Assembly: GCA_016180815.1 (NCBI GenBank)
Contig: JACPAN010000010.1
Coordinates: 15,913-79,912 of the forward strand
Reading direction: 5' to 3'
Origin: Elusimicrobiota bacterium
Lineage (GTDB): Bacteria > Elusimicrobiota > Elusimicrobia > JACQPE01
DNA: 64,000 bases
In this document: positions 23,036-28,796 of the stretch, piece by piece
Layout: each line of letters starts with the position of its first letter
Position numbering within the stretch: the stretch's first letter is position 1
Program-made: the position numbers and the translations under genes
Notes under the pieces: model-generated
Told to the model about the DNA's origin: nothing
The model's database searches: none
The model's input: the letters and a program-made list of their open reading frames with translations, nothing else

Positions 23036-23347
23036 CTACCAGACGTATACCTTGTACTTTTTGTCCGCGACCTTTTTAGAAGTAATCCTGAGCGTCCGGG
23101 CTTTTGCTAGACGAAACAATGCCACGGCCACACGCCCAGCATCGCATGGATACTTTGTTTGGACTTTGGCAAAGACTTCGCCCGCGACACGCGGAGTGGA
23201 AAAGAAGCGAGCATCCCTCAGCTCAATCAGGGCATCGGACAGCGAATTCTTGCCCGCTTTGAGCGGAGGCCCTTTCTTTTTCGAAATGATGGCCTCGAGA
23301 GCAGCTATTCGCTTTTCATGGTCCTTTAACATCGTTGCTTGGTCCAC
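23036..23347 (-). CDS. Hypothetical small basic protein (103 aa), paralog 3 of the cassette
   Basis: Last gene of a translationally coupled four-gene operon. Its C-terminal module RDARFFSTPRVAGEVFAKVQTKYP...RITSKKVADKKYKVYVW is shared with the 147- and 138-aa proteins. Confidence 0.5.
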   Translation of the reverse strand: MDQATMLKDHEKRIAALEAIISKKKGPPLKAGKNSLSDALIELRDARFFSTPRVAGEVFAKVQTKYPCDAGRVAVALFRLAKARTLRITSKKVADKKYKVYVW

Positions 23348-23349
23348 TC

Positions 23350-24141
23350 TTATTTCCTCACTTCTGGCGCACCGGCACGCCGAATGATTCCTTCCGCCTC
23401 TTCCATTCCAAGCGCACGCAGGCGAAGAGAGTTCCCATCGTCATCTACAACACTAGCGAGTCGTCTGACCGCCAGCTTCGCATTATTGATGGAAAACTGA
23501 TGACGACAGATCGTATCAACAAGAGTATCCACGGTGACTCGCCGTGGGTGCCGATACCACAAGGTCAGCAGGCCGACCTCGCGCGCGCTGATTTTCTTGA
23601 TGTTAAAATACGGACGTCTATCAATTTCCTCAGTGAGCGGGTATTTCTTCTCCATCAATTCCGCGACGAGATCGCTGGCATCCTTTAGGCTCAAAGCGCC
23701 GCGGCCAGAATAACGCACGAGCTCGGCCATTATCCAAGAACATAAAACTACGATAACATCGGCGTCCATTTCGTTTGGATCGACCTCACCCGGATCGTGG
23801 CGAGCACCGCGGTTACTGGCGATTTCATAGCCAAATCTGCATGCACGCGGGATCACGAGCCTAATCGTGTCATCGAGGCTGGTCCGCGGCATGGCAAACA
23901 GGTCGTTAATAACCTTATCAACCTTGAAATCTCGTGAAGCAGGCAACGTCTGTCCGGCATACAAGGATACGGCCTTCATGATCGCTTCAATAAACTTGCC
24001 ATCCTTCACGATCGCGCCCTCCCAGTCCTGGTGCTGAAACTTCTCAATCGCCGCAATATGGTGATCAATGGCCGCCACGACGTGCTTCTTCTCAAATTTA
24101 GTCGCGATCTGAGCTTCGATAACCTTTGCCGGTGAACTCAA
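23350..24141 (-). CDS. Hypothetical protein (263 aa), no recognisable catalytic motif
   Basis: Start overlaps the upstream gene as ATGA. Soluble and largely helical by composition. I see no Walker A motif and no canonical HEPN Rx4-6H motif. Confidence 0.5.
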   Translation of the reverse strand: MSSPAKVIEAQIATKFEKKHVVAAIDHHIAAIEKFQHQDWEGAIVKDGKFIEAIMKAVSLYAGQTLPASRDFKVDKVINDLFAMPRTSLDDTIRLVIPRACRFGYEIASNRGARHDPGEVDPNEMDADVIVVLCSWIMAELVRYSGRGALSLKDASDLVAELMEKKYPLTEEIDRRPYFNIKKISAREVGLLTLWYRHPRRVTVDTLVDTICRHQFSINNAKLAVRRLASVVDDDGNSLRLRALGMEEAEGIIRRAGAPEVRK

Positions 24142-24554
24142 TTAAGTATCTCCGACCAGCGCGGAAGAAGAACATACACGCCCTTCTTGGGTGAATCCGC
24201 CCAACCGTTGTCCTTCGCCCTGTTGGAGTAGGCCCGATTATAGGCGCCCCCCATCAAGCCGACCATCTTGCTCCAGGCGTCCTCAACCGATTTAACCGGG
24301 ACCGTCGCATTTCCAGTTTTACCTTTTGCAAGATAGGCCAGCAGAAGCGTAAATTTCTCGGGGCCCTTAAGAGAACGCGCGTGCGTCTTCATGAAGAAAC
24401 GCATCGGCGCGTTGAAATCAATCTTGGGCGCCCGGGCAGGCGCCAGCGCCTTACGCGCAACAGTTACCTTAGATTTAGTTCCCAACTTCTCCAGAACAAC
24501 CTCACCCTGATAGATGTTTTCGGCATCATCAATGAAACGAATTTCCAGTTTCAT
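24138..24554 (-). CDS. Hypothetical small basic protein (138 aa), paralog 2 of the cassette
   Basis: A GGTGAGGA RBS sits 7 nt upstream. C-terminal KSVEDAWSKM...AKDNGWADSPKKGVYVLLPRW aligns with the other two small proteins. Confidence 0.5.
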   Translation of the reverse strand: MKLEIRFIDDAENIYQGEVVLEKLGTKSKVTVARKALAPARAPKIDFNAPMRFFMKTHARSLKGPEKFTLLLAYLAKGKTGNATVPVKSVEDAWSKMVGLMGGAYNRAYSNRAKDNGWADSPKKGVYVLLPRWSEILN

Positions 24555-24564
24555 TTCTGCATCC

Positions 24565-25008
24565 TCACCAGTTCGAATACACGAATATTTTTCCCTTACC
24601 CTTTCGAACTTCCTGGGTCCGGCGCAACACTCTACGCCGCGTTTGCCGGACCAGAATCGGGCTTAACGTCGTAATCGGATATGAATGACCCGCGACGCGC
24701 AATGCCTCACGCACATCGAAAATCGACTTTGCGTTCTTAAAGAACCCTTCACGCGCTAAATCCGAGACTCGCTCAGTCGGCCCGCCCTTTCCTGATCCCT
24801 TTGCGGTGCGCGCGGGTACAGCCAGGGCTTGCTTCTTATGGGTAGAATTGGCCACGAAACCCACATTGGATCCACCCCCGGAGAGCAGGTGGCCCAATAT
24901 GACCTCAAAGGCCTTTTCCTTCAGCTTTTGATCCTGCATATCGCTGACGGATTCTTCAGCCTTCTTGCGGGCGGCGCGGATATTGGCAATTGGGTTATTT
25001 TGTTTCAT
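24565..25008 (-). CDS. Hypothetical small basic protein (147 aa), paralog 1 of the cassette, first gene, apparently leaderless
   Basis: C-terminal AREGFFKNAKSIFDVREAL...RRTQEVRKGKGKIFVYSNW. Its ATG lies 8 nt downstream of a consensus -10 box. Confidence 0.5.
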   Translation of the reverse strand: MKQNNPIANIRAARKKAEESVSDMQDQKLKEKAFEVILGHLLSGGGSNVGFVANSTHKKQALAVPARTAKGSGKGGPTERVSDLAREGFFKNAKSIFDVREALRVAGHSYPITTLSPILVRQTRRRVLRRTQEVRKGKGKIFVYSNW

Positions 25009-25016
25009 TGGTAGAC

Positions 25017-25046
25017 ATTATAAGGAATTGCAATATTTACTGTCAA
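25017..25046 (-). promoter_or_regulatory. Consensus sigma70 promoter (TTGACA-N18-TATAAT) driving the four-gene cassette as a leaderless transcript
   Basis: On the minus strand: TTGACA (25046-25041), an 18-nt spacer, then TATAAT (25022-25017). The ATG at 25008 starts 8 nt after the -10 box, so there is no room for an SD. An AT-rich upstream tract contains the palindrome ATAAATTTAT. Confidence 0.55.
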
Positions 25047-25575
25047 CTCACCGTCGGAGATTTTATTATTGATAGACTTAGCATATGAATATAAATTTAT
25101 TATCCGAGCTTTGGGACGGGATCGGTGACGTAGAGCACCGAAAAGAGTGCGCCCTAACCATTGGCTTGTGCCGCCGCGTTGCGCGCGCGGCACAGCCTCG
25201 GCGATGCCGATCAGGTCACAATGCCAGAGCCATTAACGCCAATCCCAAGCCTCATGTCAGAGTACCTTGGCAAGTGGGGGCAGTTAGAAAATTACCGGCT
25301 CCAGGAGGCTTCGCTGCGCCTCCTCTTTCACAGCCTCTGCTCCGAAAACAAAAAATTGAGCATGTGCTGCTAAAAGTAAGTGCCCTTAACGATTTACAGC
25401 ACCAATATTTTCGACACATATTCAGTAGCCAAGCATACCCTCAAAAAAGACATAGATGAGAGTTCAAGGATTCCCTCTTTATGGCCAATGACTCAATAAG
25501 GCCATGGGATGAACCAGTCTTCTCTTCCGGGGACATTTTGCGGCCTCGAGAGTATTCGTACAGGTAGATCTCGGA

Positions 25576-26022
25576 TTATGCCTTCGGCAAAACAAAACCT
25601 TCAGACCTAAGGCCTACGGCTTGGGCGGCAAGACCCTGCCGGACATCATGGGTGGCAAACAGCAGTTCCCTTTTTTCATGCTCGAGTAAATGTAGGGCTG
25701 AAGCGAGATGAATGGCATCAAGCGTTCCAATAACGGTTGGAAAACTTGCGGCGGCTCGATCAAGTATGGAAGCGCTTAAGACGATAAGATTGAAAGCCTG
25801 CAAGGCCTTTACCAGGGTCTGCGTTTTATCCGCCATTTCAAAATCGTTGAGCTTACCTTCAAGACGATAACGATCCAAAACCCTCAAAGCTTCCACTCTT
25901 GTAAGTTCGCTGGTATAAAGATTCACATCAGACCCCAAGAAAGAGCTCGCACCGCCGGAGTCGAGTATCTTGCGAAGGATGACCGAAGAGTCCAAGTAAG
26001 CGATCAATGGGGCGGAACTCAC
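25576..26022 (-). CDS. vapC: PIN-domain toxin (VapC family)
   Basis: 148 aa. The N-terminal YLDSSVIL and the acidic residues (D..E..D) fit the PIN fold. It overlaps the upstream antitoxin by 4 nt. Confidence 0.8.
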   Translation of the reverse strand: MSSAPLIAYLDSSVILRKILDSGGASSFLGSDVNLYTSELTRVEALRVLDRYRLEGKLNDFEMADKTQTLVKALQAFNLIVLSASILDRAAASFPTVIGTLDAIHLASALHLLEHEKRELLFATHDVRQGLAAQAVGLRSEGFVLPKA

Positions 26023-26303
26023 CGCCTATCTCTATCTTCGCGCAGATCGGCGACGACATCAATTTTGTGTCGTAAAGGACGGGTTTTTAAACGTAAAAAT
26101 TGCTCGGGGCTTGCCTTAGCTGGAATGACTTTGAAATCACTCACCGACTTAGGTGAGGCCAAAATTTTAGCAATCGGTGTTTTTCGATCTAAAACCAAAA
26201 CTTCTTCTCCCCTCTTAACCAAATTAAGGTAATAACTTAAACGCGCCTTAAGATTAGCAATATTAGCTGATATCATGACTATATTATAGTCATAAGTAGT
26301 CAT
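26019..26303 (-). CDS. Phd/YefM-type antitoxin partner of VapC
   Basis: MTTYDYNIVMISANIANLKARLSYYLNLVKRGEEVLVLDRKTPIAKI resembles the Phd/YefM N-terminal fold. The longer track ORF reaching 26447 would overlap the upstream gene. Confidence 0.65.
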   Translation of the reverse strand: MTTYDYNIVMISANIANLKARLSYYLNLVKRGEEVLVLDRKTPIAKILASPKSVSDFKVIPAKASPEQFLRLKTRPLRHKIDVVADLREDRDRR

Positions 26304-26320
26304 ATTTTCAACAGCCTGGA

Positions 26321-27052
26321 TCAAATCATTCGAAACAACGCCAAACTGTTTAGCCTTAGCCAAACTCTTCGGGATTTGTAGTCGGGCAAAACGGATTGCA
26401 CCATCCGCCAGAACCGGTCCGAATGATTGGGGTGCTTCAGGTGGCACAATTCATGGACCACCACATATTCCAAAACCGGCGCAGGGGTCATGGCCAGACG
26501 CCAATTAAATCTTAGATTTCCTTTGCCGGAGCAGCTTCCCCAGCGGCTTTTTTGATTGCCGACCCGGCACTTTGCCGGTGTGACGCCTAGGATAGGCGCA
26601 TACTGTTGCATGTGTTCTTGTATTTTCTGCGCGGCCAAGCCCTTATAAAAGTCCATCAGAGCGCGCCGCGCCGCCTCTTTCAAATCGTTTTGCTTGCCGG
26701 CGGGCAAAACCATTCTTAGGCAGCCATCTTCGATACCGCAAAAATTACGTTTAACCGCTTCGGATATCGCAAACTGAAATCTGTAATTTTTCCCCAGCAC
26801 CGGGAAGGATTCTCCGCTGACGAATTCCCTGGGCGGATGCTCCGCGAGCCGGTTGCGGAAAAAATCGGTCTGTCTAAATATCCAATCCGCATGTTTGAGC
26901 ACAAAGGCTTCAATGTCCTTTTGCCGGGCGGATTTGGGCGCACTGACCGCCACTTCCCCCTCTTGATTGATGCGCAAGGTCAACCTGCGCTTCCAGGCTC
27001 TAAATTTCAAGGAATACTCAATTTTCTTGTCTTGATGCAAAATTTCCGGCAT
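26321..27052 (-). CDS. DUF45/YgjP-like zinc metallohydrolase (HExxH)
   Basis: 243 aa with HELCHLKHPNHSDRFW (HExxH plus a downstream H). Sits 18 nt upstream of the antitoxin gene. Confidence 0.8.
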   Translation of the reverse strand: MPEILHQDKKIEYSLKFRAWKRRLTLRINQEGEVAVSAPKSARQKDIEAFVLKHADWIFRQTDFFRNRLAEHPPREFVSGESFPVLGKNYRFQFAISEAVKRNFCGIEDGCLRMVLPAGKQNDLKEAARRALMDFYKGLAAQKIQEHMQQYAPILGVTPAKCRVGNQKSRWGSCSGKGNLRFNWRLAMTPAPVLEYVVVHELCHLKHPNHSDRFWRMVQSVLPDYKSRRVWLRLNSLALFRMI

Positions 27053-27651: not shown

Positions 27652-28065
27652 TTACTCGCCCAGGATTTTAACGATGACGCGTTTTTTTCTTTGGCCGTCG
27701 AATTCCGCGTAAAAGACCTGTTCCCAGGGGCCTAAGTCGAGTTTGCCTGCGGTCACGGGCAAAACAGTCTGGTAATGGATCAGCGTTCTTTTTAAATGCG
27801 CGTCGCCGTTATCTTCTCCGGTTTGATGGTGGCGGTAATCGCCGACCGGCGCCAGGCGCTCAAGCAAATCCATTAAATCCTGTTTCAACCCCTCCTCTTC
27901 ATCATTGACCCAAATGCCGGCGGTGATATGCATGGCGCTGACCAGGCACATGCCCTCTTGAATCCTGCTTTTGGTGACCAGCTCTTGAATGGTTTGGGTG
28001 ATATTGGTCAAGTCCTTGCGTTTCTTGGTGTTGAAATAAAGATATTCGGTGAAACTTGTCATGAT
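27652..28065 (-). CDS. yjbQ: YjbQ/UPF0047 family protein
   Basis: [23 protein letters not shown]...[20 protein letters not shown] is typical of UPF0047. The start is taken at the internal Met to avoid overlapping the upstream gene. Confidence 0.75.
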
Positions 28066-28796
28066 TTTAACGCGGCCGCGATTTTTTCCCGGCAAGCCTT
28101 TTGATCGTTCATGATTTCCCCCTCCGACAACCTTAAAATACGCCAACCCAAAACGCTCAGATCAGCGTCTTTTATTTTGTCTTTTTGTTTCTGATCGGCA
28201 CGGCGATGGGAACGGAACCCGTCGCATTCAATGCCCAAACGGCTGGTTTTCAGAAATAGCGCAAAATCAAGGCGCCATCGTTTTTTAGGAGTCAGGCGAA
28301 TCGTGTATTCTCTTCGATAAGGAAAACCGGTTGCCTTCACATACTCCTCGACCATCTCTTCGATAGGCGGCAAATCAAAAAGCTCTTTAACTTCCCGACA
28401 GTTTTTGAGTTTTCCCAAAGTGGTGAAGCCGAAGGTCACGCGCATGCGGCGCTGATTAAGAATAGGTTGAGGCAACGTGCGGCAAGGACCTAAATGTAAA
28501 AGATAATACGGCTCATTGGCTCTGGGATGTTCCGGCTCATCTCTAACGATATCGCGGCGCTTTACGGTTTCTATTTTCCGAACACTCGCCCAGTATCTGA
28601 TTAAACCATCAAACCCCTGGGGCCGCATTTTAATAAGGCCCAAATTTTCTTGGGTAGACACCGGCTGATAAAAAGCGACATAACGGAGTTTTCGTTTGGG
28701 GGCATGGGATTGGGGAATGCGGTAGAGACGCGAACGAAGAATCATGTTTAAGTCTTTGGGGGATTTGACGACGCAGATTAAAACGTTGCGGGTCAT
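28059..28796 (-). CDS. DUF559 (Vsr-like endonuclease fold) domain protein with an unknown N-terminal domain
   Basis: C-terminal [55 protein letters not shown] matches the DUF559 endonuclease domain. Its start overlaps the GT4 stop by 4 nt. Confidence 0.6.

Follow-up and report, generated by a model that had tools for sequence, protein, structure and literature searches.

The question raised by the locus at positions 23036-25046 is whether its four co-directional open reading frames (A, B, C and D, minus strand) encode an undescribed conflict system or serve another function. The window, i.e. the whole stretch of DNA analysed here, comprises 64 kb. According to our analysis the cassette is most likely an undescribed module of the toxin-antitoxin (TA) or anti-phage type and not a housekeeping operon.

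The four reading frames and their lengths, as listed in the earlier note, were confirmed from the ORF coordinates (Table 1). The junctions described there held for A and B, which are separated by 10 nt with a good ribosome binding site (GAGGA, overlapping the stop codon of A), and had to be corrected for the other genes. The stop codon of B overlaps the start codon of C as TTGA and not as ATGA, the start codon of C being TTG. Due to this overlap B and C are translationally coupled. The spacing between C and D is 2 nt instead of 0 nt; D starts with GTG and is preceded by GAGGA 8 nt upstream. The adjacent genes had been described as two type II TA modules, a DUF45 and a DUF559 protein. Pfam identified them accordingly as PIN with a Phd-like protein, Phd/YefM with YoeB, YgjP-like (DUF45) and DUF559/MTES_1575. 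The two TA pairs adjoin the cassette in the window and were counted in favour of a conflict module. A lower-GC island, also proposed before, was found for the adjoining TA genes (0.478), but not for the cassette itself (0.525 compared with 0.542 for the window; 21st percentile of 2-kb windows), and this argument was dropped for the cassette. In the Rfam scan of the cassette region no match was obtained beyond CRISPR-DR33 (sub-threshold, E 0.13), which was dismissed as chance.

Table 1. Coordinates of the genes, protein domains and promoter elements of the cassette in the window
Feature	Position	Strand	Remarks
Gene A	24565..25008	-	147 aa
Gene B	24138..24554	-	138 aa
Gene C	23350..24141	-	263 aa; predicted effector
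Gene D	23036..23347	-	103 aa; facultative extra paralog of A
HEPN domain of C	23647..24141	-	~residues 1-165; includes invariant E52-x3-K56
Putative active-site loop A108-S-N-R111-G-A-R114-H115-D116	23794..23820	-	HEPN helix 3/4 junction
Winged-helix domain of C	23371..23634	-	~residues 170-257
-35 hexamer TTGACA of the cassette promoter	25041..25046	-	sole perfect TTGACA-N16-18-TATAAT in the window
-10 hexamer TATAAT	25017..25022	-	followed by the ATG of A after 8 nt
ATCAATAATAAAAT, copy of the CAATAATA-type motif	25061..25074	-	motif enriched upstream of homologous cassettes

The perfect promoter TTGACA-N18-TATAAT (25046..25017, minus strand) claimed for the cassette was verified, including its distance to the ATG. 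It is the single perfect match in 64 kb, compared with 0.01 expected from shuffles. Because TATAAT lies only 8 nt before the ATG of A, a leaderless or near-leaderless transcript is implied for the window. As a general trait of the cassette the leaderless promoter could not be retained. In homologous cassettes the promoter, likewise of the TTGACA type, lies 60-70 nt upstream and a leader with a Shine-Dalgarno sequence is present; in most homologs it comprises 30-45 nt. Judged from these upstream regions, the leaderless arrangement is specific to the window locus and no trait of the family.

The exact sequence CTTGACA was found upstream of 17 of the 62 homologous cassettes, compared with 12 of 2679 background windows. 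AATAATA was detected equally often (17/62 upstream regions; background 33/2679). Strong promoters close to the consensus and the recurring CAATAATA motif accompany the cassette among its homologs and were counted in favour of a conflict module. The copy in the window, ATCAATAATAAAAT, overlaps the -10 region of a weaker promoter-like site at 25089..25060 and is possibly an operator or a relic of an ancestral -10 region. A search for operators at the window promoter itself yielded a weak overlapping palindrome and the 8-nt ATTGCAAT in the spacer, neither of which was convincing.

The 263-aa protein C could formerly not be assigned to any family. By its fold, C is predicted to combine an N-terminal HEPN domain, a predicted RNase, with a C-terminal winged helix. 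The N-terminal part shows the four-helix up-down bundle of the HEPN fold and in structure matches the HEPN-T/UPF0332 group best. The succession H1-S1-H2-H3-S2-S3 of the winged-helix fold was found for the C-terminal domain of C as well as for B. HEPN motifs have been defined as Rx4-6H with a polar residue after the arginine and E-x3-[K/R] as second motif (PMC3710099). The second motif is present in C; E52 is invariant in the alignments of the close clade and of the wider family, and position 56 is lysine in the close clade and mostly R/K in the wider family. Regarding the first motif, the loop A108-S-N-R111-G-A-R114-H115 is invariant in the close clade, with Rx3H spacing and without a literal Rx4-6H. 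The same columns of the wider family, which comprises 931 clusters at 50% identity, read R108-[N/S]-[K/N]-R111-G-x-x-H115 and thus Rx6H (66 members, 20-30% identity). Therefore, the statement of the earlier note that no canonical HEPN motif is present is true for the literal Rx4-6H in C of the window, but not for the fold and the motifs of the family. The missing first arginine of this protein (A108; R111-x3-H115) was counted against a conflict module, and activity in the close clade would hang on an assumed compensating R114. Among members with 20-30% identity H115, R111, E52 and D126 vary little or not at all; H115 is, like E52, invariant in the wider family. Such invariant polar residues argue for catalysis.

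Some HEPN proteins, e.g. MtlR and sacsin, are non-toxins. Hence, C could also be a regulator, an RNA-processing or a ligand-binding factor, which would work with small transcription factors in a mobile accessory operon. The lack of a literal Rx4-6H in the window clade is consistent with such a function, as is the structural match to HEPN-T/UPF0332, a group including members with altered sites; furthermore, winged helices are classic domains of transcription factors. The near-invariance of the four residues named above speaks against it, however. In addition, the cassette is mobile and patchy, no conserved target genes are located nearby, and elsewhere the HEPN protein is replaced by a PLD-like protein. 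A function outside of conflict is considered improbable.

The small proteins A, B and D had been described as three paralogs. In A, a helical module at the N-terminus is joined by a low-complexity linker to a C-terminal domain of ~70 aa (GFF...YP.T.LS...LRR...W.Y). D has the helix KRIAALEAII at its N-terminus, followed by a C-terminal domain of the A type. This domain is predicted to be a winged helix, based on the conserved sequence pattern and on marginal matches of the A family to BlaI/Penicillinase_R (E 0.04-0.64). The relationship of A and D was confirmed by comparison of their family profiles (hhalign, probability 98.7%, E 2e-16, 75 columns) and by reciprocal HMM matches (E 1e-5 and 2e-6). 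Pairwise BLASTP among A, B and D returned the A-D pair only, and weakly (E 0.072); this kinship is visible with family profiles, whereas pairwise BLASTP is insufficient. In B, an N-terminal beta-hairpin (residues 2-20) and a disordered linker (27-40) precede the winged-helix domain (51-137). B could not be related to A or D by sequence, either with BLASTP or with hhalign of the family profiles. Thus, B has a winged helix according to its modelled fold, which it is predicted to share with A and D, but it is not a detectable paralog of them. None of the three proteins was related to the winged helix of C by hhalign. Four ORFs matched the HMMs of B and D alike, solely via a common N-terminal helix, and A, B and D show shuffled N-terminal modules.

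Sequence matches beyond noise were obtained for none of the four proteins in scans of Pfam, NCBIfam, PADLOC and PHROGs. With PADLOC-DB v2, A, B, C and D remained without match at E up to 1. The same holds for C with the curated HEPN models of Pfam and NCBIfam (E up to 1, noise excepted). Scans of 55 members of the A family gave nothing useful. PDB sequence searches with the family profiles of A, B, C and D were not significant, and no HEPN chain was found in the PDB with profiles A1 and A7. No MNT/nucleotidyltransferase match or motif was detected in A, B and D (Pfam, PADLOC, NCBIfam, PHROGs). A description of the A-B-C cassette was not found in the literature either; together with the searches in these databases and the PDB, this upholds the view that the system is undescribed.

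The strong promoter and the small basic DNA-binding proteins recall regulatory cassettes of phages, and integrases account for 4 of the 146 immediate neighbours. The cassette could accordingly be a remnant of a prophage or mobile element with structural or lysogeny-control proteins. Against this origin, relatives of C or B are absent among 2.9 million IMG/VR contigs and likewise from 50,697 phage genomes (INPHARED), and PHROGs gave no meaningful match. The sole plasmid match is a distant stand-alone homolog on the Natronomonas plasmid PL131, and the flanks are mostly housekeeping genes. This explanation is largely refuted and has a very slight probability.

The cassette is present in 88 of 185,579 species, belonging to Acidobacteriota, CPR, Proteobacteria, Nitrospira, Planctomycetota, Chloroflexota and one archaeon. 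It is sparse, with sporadic occurrence among uncultured bacteria, phylogenetically patchy, self-contained and horizontally mobile. Homologs of A precede C in 64 of the 86 loci. The order A-B-C with coupled or overlapping junctions is kept in most of 76 loci, and in 72 of them at least one small winged-helix gene lies directly upstream of C. Downstream of C, D was found in only four of the 76 loci (the window, L037, L041 and L068); elsewhere, genes of the D type precede C and sometimes take the place of B. Hence, the conserved unit is A-B-C and not the four-gene cassette assumed before. No further gene family recurs in more than five of 86 loci. Most flanking genes have unrelated housekeeping functions, a few encode integrases or belong to restriction-modification systems, and defence genes are only weakly enriched among the immediate neighbours. 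In four contigs with an identical DUF3052 neighbour the cassette was found in all four; as these originate from the same population, they give no information on its presence or absence in close relatives. Adjacent coupled genes in a mobile and patchy module correspond to the generic layout of type II TA systems.

B and C are conserved to a similar degree (mean column identity 43% and 57%, respectively), and this is not usual for an antitoxin. This conservation, the lack of a PADLOC match and the weak enrichment of defence genes nearby were counted against a conflict module of the TA or abortive-infection kind.

Furthermore, an exchange of the effector was identified. In metagenome loci seeded with B, the next gene was C in 51 cases and encoded a protein with winged helix and PLD-like domain in 17. 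Thus, the HEPN effector is exchanged for a PLD-like effector beside the same partner B, which hardly fits a dedicated regulatory role. The partners might be sensors and not antitoxins. The winged helices of A, B, D and C would sense invading DNA or a phage product and activate or recruit the nuclease, which would be a HEPN RNase in this cassette and a PLD-like enzyme in its sister cassettes. For this explanation speak the winged helix in every component (predicted for A and D), the two unrelated nuclease-type effectors served by one partner family, the shuffled N-terminal modules of A, B and D, and the conservation of B, which is better suited to a sensor or adaptor than to a fast-evolving antitoxin. 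On the other hand, no ATPase, helicase or other typical sensor is encoded, a defence-island context is not clear and PADLOC found no match; moreover, constitutive-looking strong promoters and tight translational coupling are more TA-like. A defence system activated by sensors is regarded as unlikely. Less likely than not, and put forward tentatively, is a hitherto unrecognised modular immune or conflict family of prokaryotes in which interchangeable small winged-helix subunits, sensors or inhibitors, serve nucleases fused to a winged helix, of at least two unrelated kinds, and which spreads horizontally. In each subunit a short plug at the N-terminus would be connected by a flexible linker to a winged helix, and the nucleases would be the new HEPN RNase family and the PLD-like enzyme. 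The spread would proceed via Acidobacteriota, CPR and other uncultured lineages, in which known defence systems are poorly charted.

The best explanation, to which we give about even chances, is a conflict module of the TA or abortive-infection kind with a HEPN effector held in check by winged-helix partners. We infer that C would be the effector, a metal-independent RNase according to its HEPN fold, tethered by its winged helix to nucleic acid or to the partners. B would be the cognate partner holding the HEPN site inactive, a role suggested by its translational coupling to C and its near-constant presence. A, and the extra paralog D in the window, with their small N-terminal module, flexible linker and predicted winged helix, may work at the strong sigma70-type promoter, either in autoregulation or as adaptors. 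If the partners were lost or displaced, through phage infection, element loss or a specific signal, C would be released, cut cellular RNA and stop growth. The defence, abortive-infection or addiction role of an undescribed system, proposed in the earlier note, fits the lack of sequence matches, the patchy distribution, the predicted RNase with HEPN fold and the effector swap.

Several known systems resemble the cassette in part. Abortive-infection modules with winged-helix antitoxins or regulators, or with HEPN effectors, are AbiE (winged-helix antitoxin AbiEi and AbiEii), AbiD/F, AbiJ, AbiU2 and AbiV. The cassette likewise has winged-helix partners and a predicted HEPN effector, but A, B, C and D are unmatched by any Abi model of Pfam or PADLOC at E up to 1. 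In HEPN-MNT systems of TA type II/VII (SO_3166/SO_3165; HEPN-T/UPF0332, DUF86) the partner is MNT, in contrast to the winged-helix partners here; C additionally bears its own C-terminal winged helix and matches no HEPN family of Pfam by sequence. Tripartite type II TA systems (omega-epsilon-zeta; PaaR-PaaA-ParE) also comprise three co-transcribed genes and are mobile and patchy. A, B and C could correspond to their regulator, antitoxin and toxin, respectively. The protein families are unrelated, however, and all three cassette proteins have winged helices (predicted for A). Compared with Csm6/Csx1 (CARF-HTH-HEPN), C lacks a CARF sensor domain and has its domains in reverse order; a CRISPR-Cas context was found neither in the window nor in the loci examined.

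A precedent, counted in favour of the conflict module, is the type IX retron, in which the active site of a HEPN nuclease with non-canonical motif is encircled and kept silent by a winged-helix protein until infection (bioRxiv 10.64898/2026.07.14.738597). This system (Retron-Kva2) resembles the cassette in the combination of a HEPN nuclease without canonical Rx4-6H and a winged-helix protein. It is the closest mechanistic analogue for a possible restraint of C by B and A. Unlike the retron, the cassette lacks a reverse transcriptase and an msr/msd RNA; Rfam gave no match beyond chance, and the retron models of PADLOC were unmatched. The winged-helix protein of the retron comprises three domains (245 aa), whereas A and B have single winged helices with short N-terminal modules.

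As a compact three-gene system with a consensus sigma70 promoter, the cassette can easily be tested in E. coli. If the proposed explanation is true, C would represent a new sequence family of the HEPN superfamily, none of whose 931 clusters is contained in Pfam, including a HEPN clade whose catalytic arginine appears to be shifted. The small proteins would be a new class of winged-helix partners for nuclease effectors, within a new modular TA or defence architecture exchanging HEPN and PLD-like effectors. A defence or addiction module of this kind would be characteristic of soil Acidobacteriota and of CPR bacteria, groups in which most of the immune repertoire is still uncharted.

All four co-directional ORFs proposed in the earlier note were found, on the minus strand of the window. 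The 10-nt junction between genes A and B was also confirmed, with a GAGGA overlapping the stop codon of A. The other two junctions differ from those described: B and C share a TTGA and not an ATGA overlap, with TTG instead of ATG as first codon of C, and C and D are separated by 2 nt and not by 0 nt, with GAGGA 8 nt upstream of the GTG. At a GC content of 0.525 (whole window, 0.542) the cassette ranks at the 21st percentile among 2-kb windows. Thus, it forms no clear compositional island; the adjoining segment 25576-28796 (GC 0.478) does form one.

Features of the cassette in the window and sister cassettes among the B-seeded metagenome loci (L091-L170)
Feature	Position	Strand	Remark
Gene A	24565-25008	-	147 aa ORF
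Gene B	24138-24554	-	138 aa ORF
Gene C	23350-24141	-	263 aa ORF, TTG start
Gene D	23036-23347	-	103 aa ORF, GTG start
TTGACA-N18-TATAAT promoter	25046..25017	-	perfect consensus; ATG of A 8 nt after -10 box
ATCAATAATAAAAT	25061-25074		just upstream of the -35 of the window; retained copy of motif
Sister cassette	L100:3813-4562		B, then 240-270 aa protein
Sister cassette	L125:3789-4502		B, then 240-270 aa protein
Sister cassette	L132:767-1519		B, then 240-270 aa protein
Sister cassette	L147:1924-2712		B, then 240-270 aa protein
Sister cassette	L157:3821-4636		B, then 240-270 aa protein
Sister cassette	L161:2724-3536		B, then 240-270 aa protein

The neighbour identities named earlier were verified with Pfam. 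In this Elusimicrobia MAG (locus tags HYT79_05190 and HYT79_05195) the cassette is flanked on one side by DUF3052, isocitrate dehydrogenase and YceD/L32/PlsX, on the other by PIN and Phd-like, YgjP-like (DUF45), Phd/YefM and YoeB, UPF0047 and MTES_1575/DUF559 endonuclease. The 567 nt from the cassette promoter to the PIN (VapC-like) gene (25009-25575) are low in GC (0.476) and contain no recognisable gene. A plus-strand 124-aa ORF therein (25085-25459) had no Pfam match, and the sole Rfam match, a sub-threshold CRISPR-DR33 at 25382-25418 (E 0.13), is probably due to chance. Taken as its longest ORF, the Phd-like antitoxin gene shares ~125 nt with the 3' end of the YgjP-like gene (26019-26447 and 26321-27052, minus strand). 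The true start of the antitoxin is probably internal, because the Pfam match (20.6 bits, below the threshold of 29.8) begins at residue 58. The 'DUF559' protein (28059-28796, minus strand) matched the MTES_1575 Vsr-like restriction endonuclease model with E 6.5e-12, compared with E 1.9e-6 for DUF559; at its C-terminal end it runs into the long ORF of UPF0047 (YjbQ-like).

For A, B, C and D nothing above noise was obtained in Pfam, NCBIfam, PADLOC-DB and PHROGs, and sequence searches with the family profiles found no solved structure. The 189 close homologs of C (43-54% identity) are all without annotation. In a confident AlphaFold2 model of C built on 41 of them (pLDDT 91.6), residues 1-165 form an all-helical N-terminal domain and residues 170-257 a C-terminal winged helix. 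No full-length match was obtained with Foldseek against the full PDB; partial matches, all with E > 0.1, were to HEPN for the N-terminal and to MarR/IclR for the C-terminal domain. Invariant in the close clade is the block P98 R99 .. Y105 .. S109 N110 R111 G112. R114 H115 D116 .. N123. M125 D126 A127, and E52-x3-K56 is also present. An exhaustive profile search widened the family to 931 clusters at 50% identity, of which 630 reached E 1e-10 or better; almost all members have 250-260 aa. In 66 distant members (20-30% identity) R108-[N/S]-[K/N]-R111-G-x-x-H115 occupies the same columns, with E52, H115, D126 and W136 invariant. Judged by sequence, these members carry the canonical HEPN motif Rx4-6H with a polar residue after the arginine, together with the E-x3-[K/R] motif described by Anantharaman et al. 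(PMC3710099). In the clade of the window alanine replaces R108, and an invariant R114 is gained beside the histidine. Thus, the earlier note was right that the literal Rx4-6H is absent from the 263-aa protein, but not that the protein is unassignable; a HEPN domain plus winged helix is predicted.

The distribution of C was examined with one genome per species. Relatives were present in 88 of 185,579 species, all of them MAGs, mostly of Acidobacteriota/Terriglobia. Other hosts belong to Verrucomicrobia, Alpha-, Delta- and Gammaproteobacteria, Nitrospira, Nitrosomonas, Gemmatimonadota, Planctomycetota, Chloroflexota and Omnitrophota, besides many CPR/Patescibacteria and one Bathyarchaeia. Directly upstream of C, 72 of the 76 loci with enough upstream sequence have one or more genes of A/D or B type. 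The commonest order is A-B-C (30 of 76), extended in further variants by an extra A or D copy; an A/D-type gene takes the place of B in ~19 of 76. The four-gene arrangement is therefore upheld for A-B-C but not for a downstream D, which was found only in the window and in loci of Nitrosomonas (L037), Nitrospira (L041) and Phycisphaerae (L068). In all-against-all clustering of flanking ORFs, any other family was shared by at most 5 of 86 loci. Unrelated housekeeping genes make up most of the immediate neighbours (n = 146), which also include 4 integrases and a few restriction-modification or candidate defence genes. Neither C nor B had relatives in IMG/VR or in phage genomes, and derivation of the cassette from a prophage is essentially excluded. 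Patchy hosts, unrelated flanks and viral absence thus identify a self-contained, horizontally transferred module, neither core nor viral.

One distant C homolog (L086:3998-4870; 26% identity, motif IRNNRDSVH, Rx6H) is located on plasmid PL131 of Natronomonas pharaonis. It stands alone, adjoining an ISH6-like transposase and without small winged-helix genes upstream; hence, the wider HEPN family is not always part of an A-B-C cassette. At one locus (L055:4566-5732) B and C appear fused in a single ORF of 388 aa, and C is broken into two or three ORFs in several (L072, L073, L076-L079, L081, L083). Since most of these loci stem from long-read 'MFD' MAGs, genuine fusions or pseudogenes are no more likely than frameshift errors. 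On a 2.6-Mb JGI contig (L001:2433-5534) extra genes precede the B-C pair. One product of ~314-366 aa has a HEPN-like motif of canonical form, RNAPAH; the others are a protein of 231 aa and two more small proteins (201 and 151 aa) with winged-helix-like C-termini. These genes may belong to a separate system or to an expansion of this one.

Pairwise BLASTP among the small proteins gave E 0.072 for A and D and no match for the other pairs. With homologs gathered from 80 genome loci, the A and D family profiles aligned over the C-terminal 75 residues (98.7% probability, E 2e-16), and reciprocal HMM searches agreed (A family against the D of the window, E 1e-5; D family against A, E 2e-6). The B family matched neither. 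Thus, the C-terminal module formerly attributed to all three is homologous in A and D, while B shares only the fold. A and D are predicted winged helices according to the conserved pattern and marginal BlaI matches. The N-terminal modules are shuffled: some B proteins bear the D-type helix RIxRLEKAVFG, and many A proteins begin with a hairpin, MAKATIKSxxGxxITVEG, where the A of the window has a helical module. In four loci (L052, L057, L062, L065) B has the D-type helix and the upstream A starts with another amphipathic helix, IxEQIKxLVDEL, a hint that these modules vary together in the two proteins and may form pairs.

The perfect consensus promoter is the sole such site in 64 kb (0.01 in dinucleotide shuffles). 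Among 62 regions upstream of homologous cassettes, 17 have an exact CTTGACA (background windows, 12 of 2679) and 17 have AATAATA (background windows, 33 of 2679). The common layout is a TTGACA-type -35 ~60-70 nt ahead of the start codon, CAATAATAG.nATAG near -10/+1, a second CATAATAA and then a Shine-Dalgarno sequence. An ATG 6-8 nt past the -10 box was found only in the window and possibly in one homologous locus (L017). A strong sigma70-type promoter is hence a family trait, whereas the predicted leaderless start, claimed together with it, is specific to the window locus. A weaker promoter-like site (25089..25060) overlaps ATCAATAATAAAAT, and no convincing operator palindrome was found at the window promoter.

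A metagenome scan seeded with B instead of C yielded 80 loci. The gene after B encodes a HEPN-winged-helix protein in 51/80 and a 240-270 aa protein with N-terminal winged helix and C-terminal domain in 17/80; 7/80 were not assessable and 5/80 had something else. The 240-270 aa protein occurs in two subtypes; in one of them the N-terminal winged helix is clearly paralogous to B. Its C-terminal motif, LHDR[FY]xI..D..G..IKD, is HKD-like with R for K, and Pfam matches were sub-threshold only (PLDc_2, E 0.096; MIT_C, E 0.02-0.04). This domain is tentatively regarded as PLD-like. One partner family with two putative nuclease-type effectors is what would be expected of conflict systems. A regulatory role outside conflict is less likely, given this swap and the invariant catalytic-type residues in C.

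Folds and motifs, synteny, distribution and the swap of effectors are observed, and a module of TA or abortive-infection type is the model best supported. C would be the RNase effector and toxic, with B, coupled to C and rarely missing, as its cognate restraining partner. A would act as winged-helix regulator or adaptor, probably autoregulatory, with D as its spare copy in the window locus. The build of the small proteins agrees with this model: a short N-terminal module, a flexible linker and a DNA-binding domain would be expected if they both bind an operator and plug an enzyme until a putative trigger. In the main rival explanation, a sensor-activated defence system with which the computed evidence is also compatible, the winged-helix proteins would instead recognise invader DNA. 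For restraint of C within a TA or abortive-infection module, the type IX retron is a precedent: its HEPN nuclease is active without canonical motif, and a winged-helix protein encircles the active site until the phage trigger (bioRxiv 10.64898/2026.07.14.738597). The cassette is not such a retron, as it lacks RT and ncRNA; nor is it a HEPN-MNT member, without nucleotidyltransferase, or a CRISPR ancillary RNase, as C has no CARF domain. No description of the cassette was found in the literature. In its predicted working it resembles HEPN-based TA or Abi modules most closely. Thus, a module with HEPN effector is of an already known kind, but the HEPN sequence family, the winged-helix partner families and the modular architecture are, as far as sequences indicate, new.
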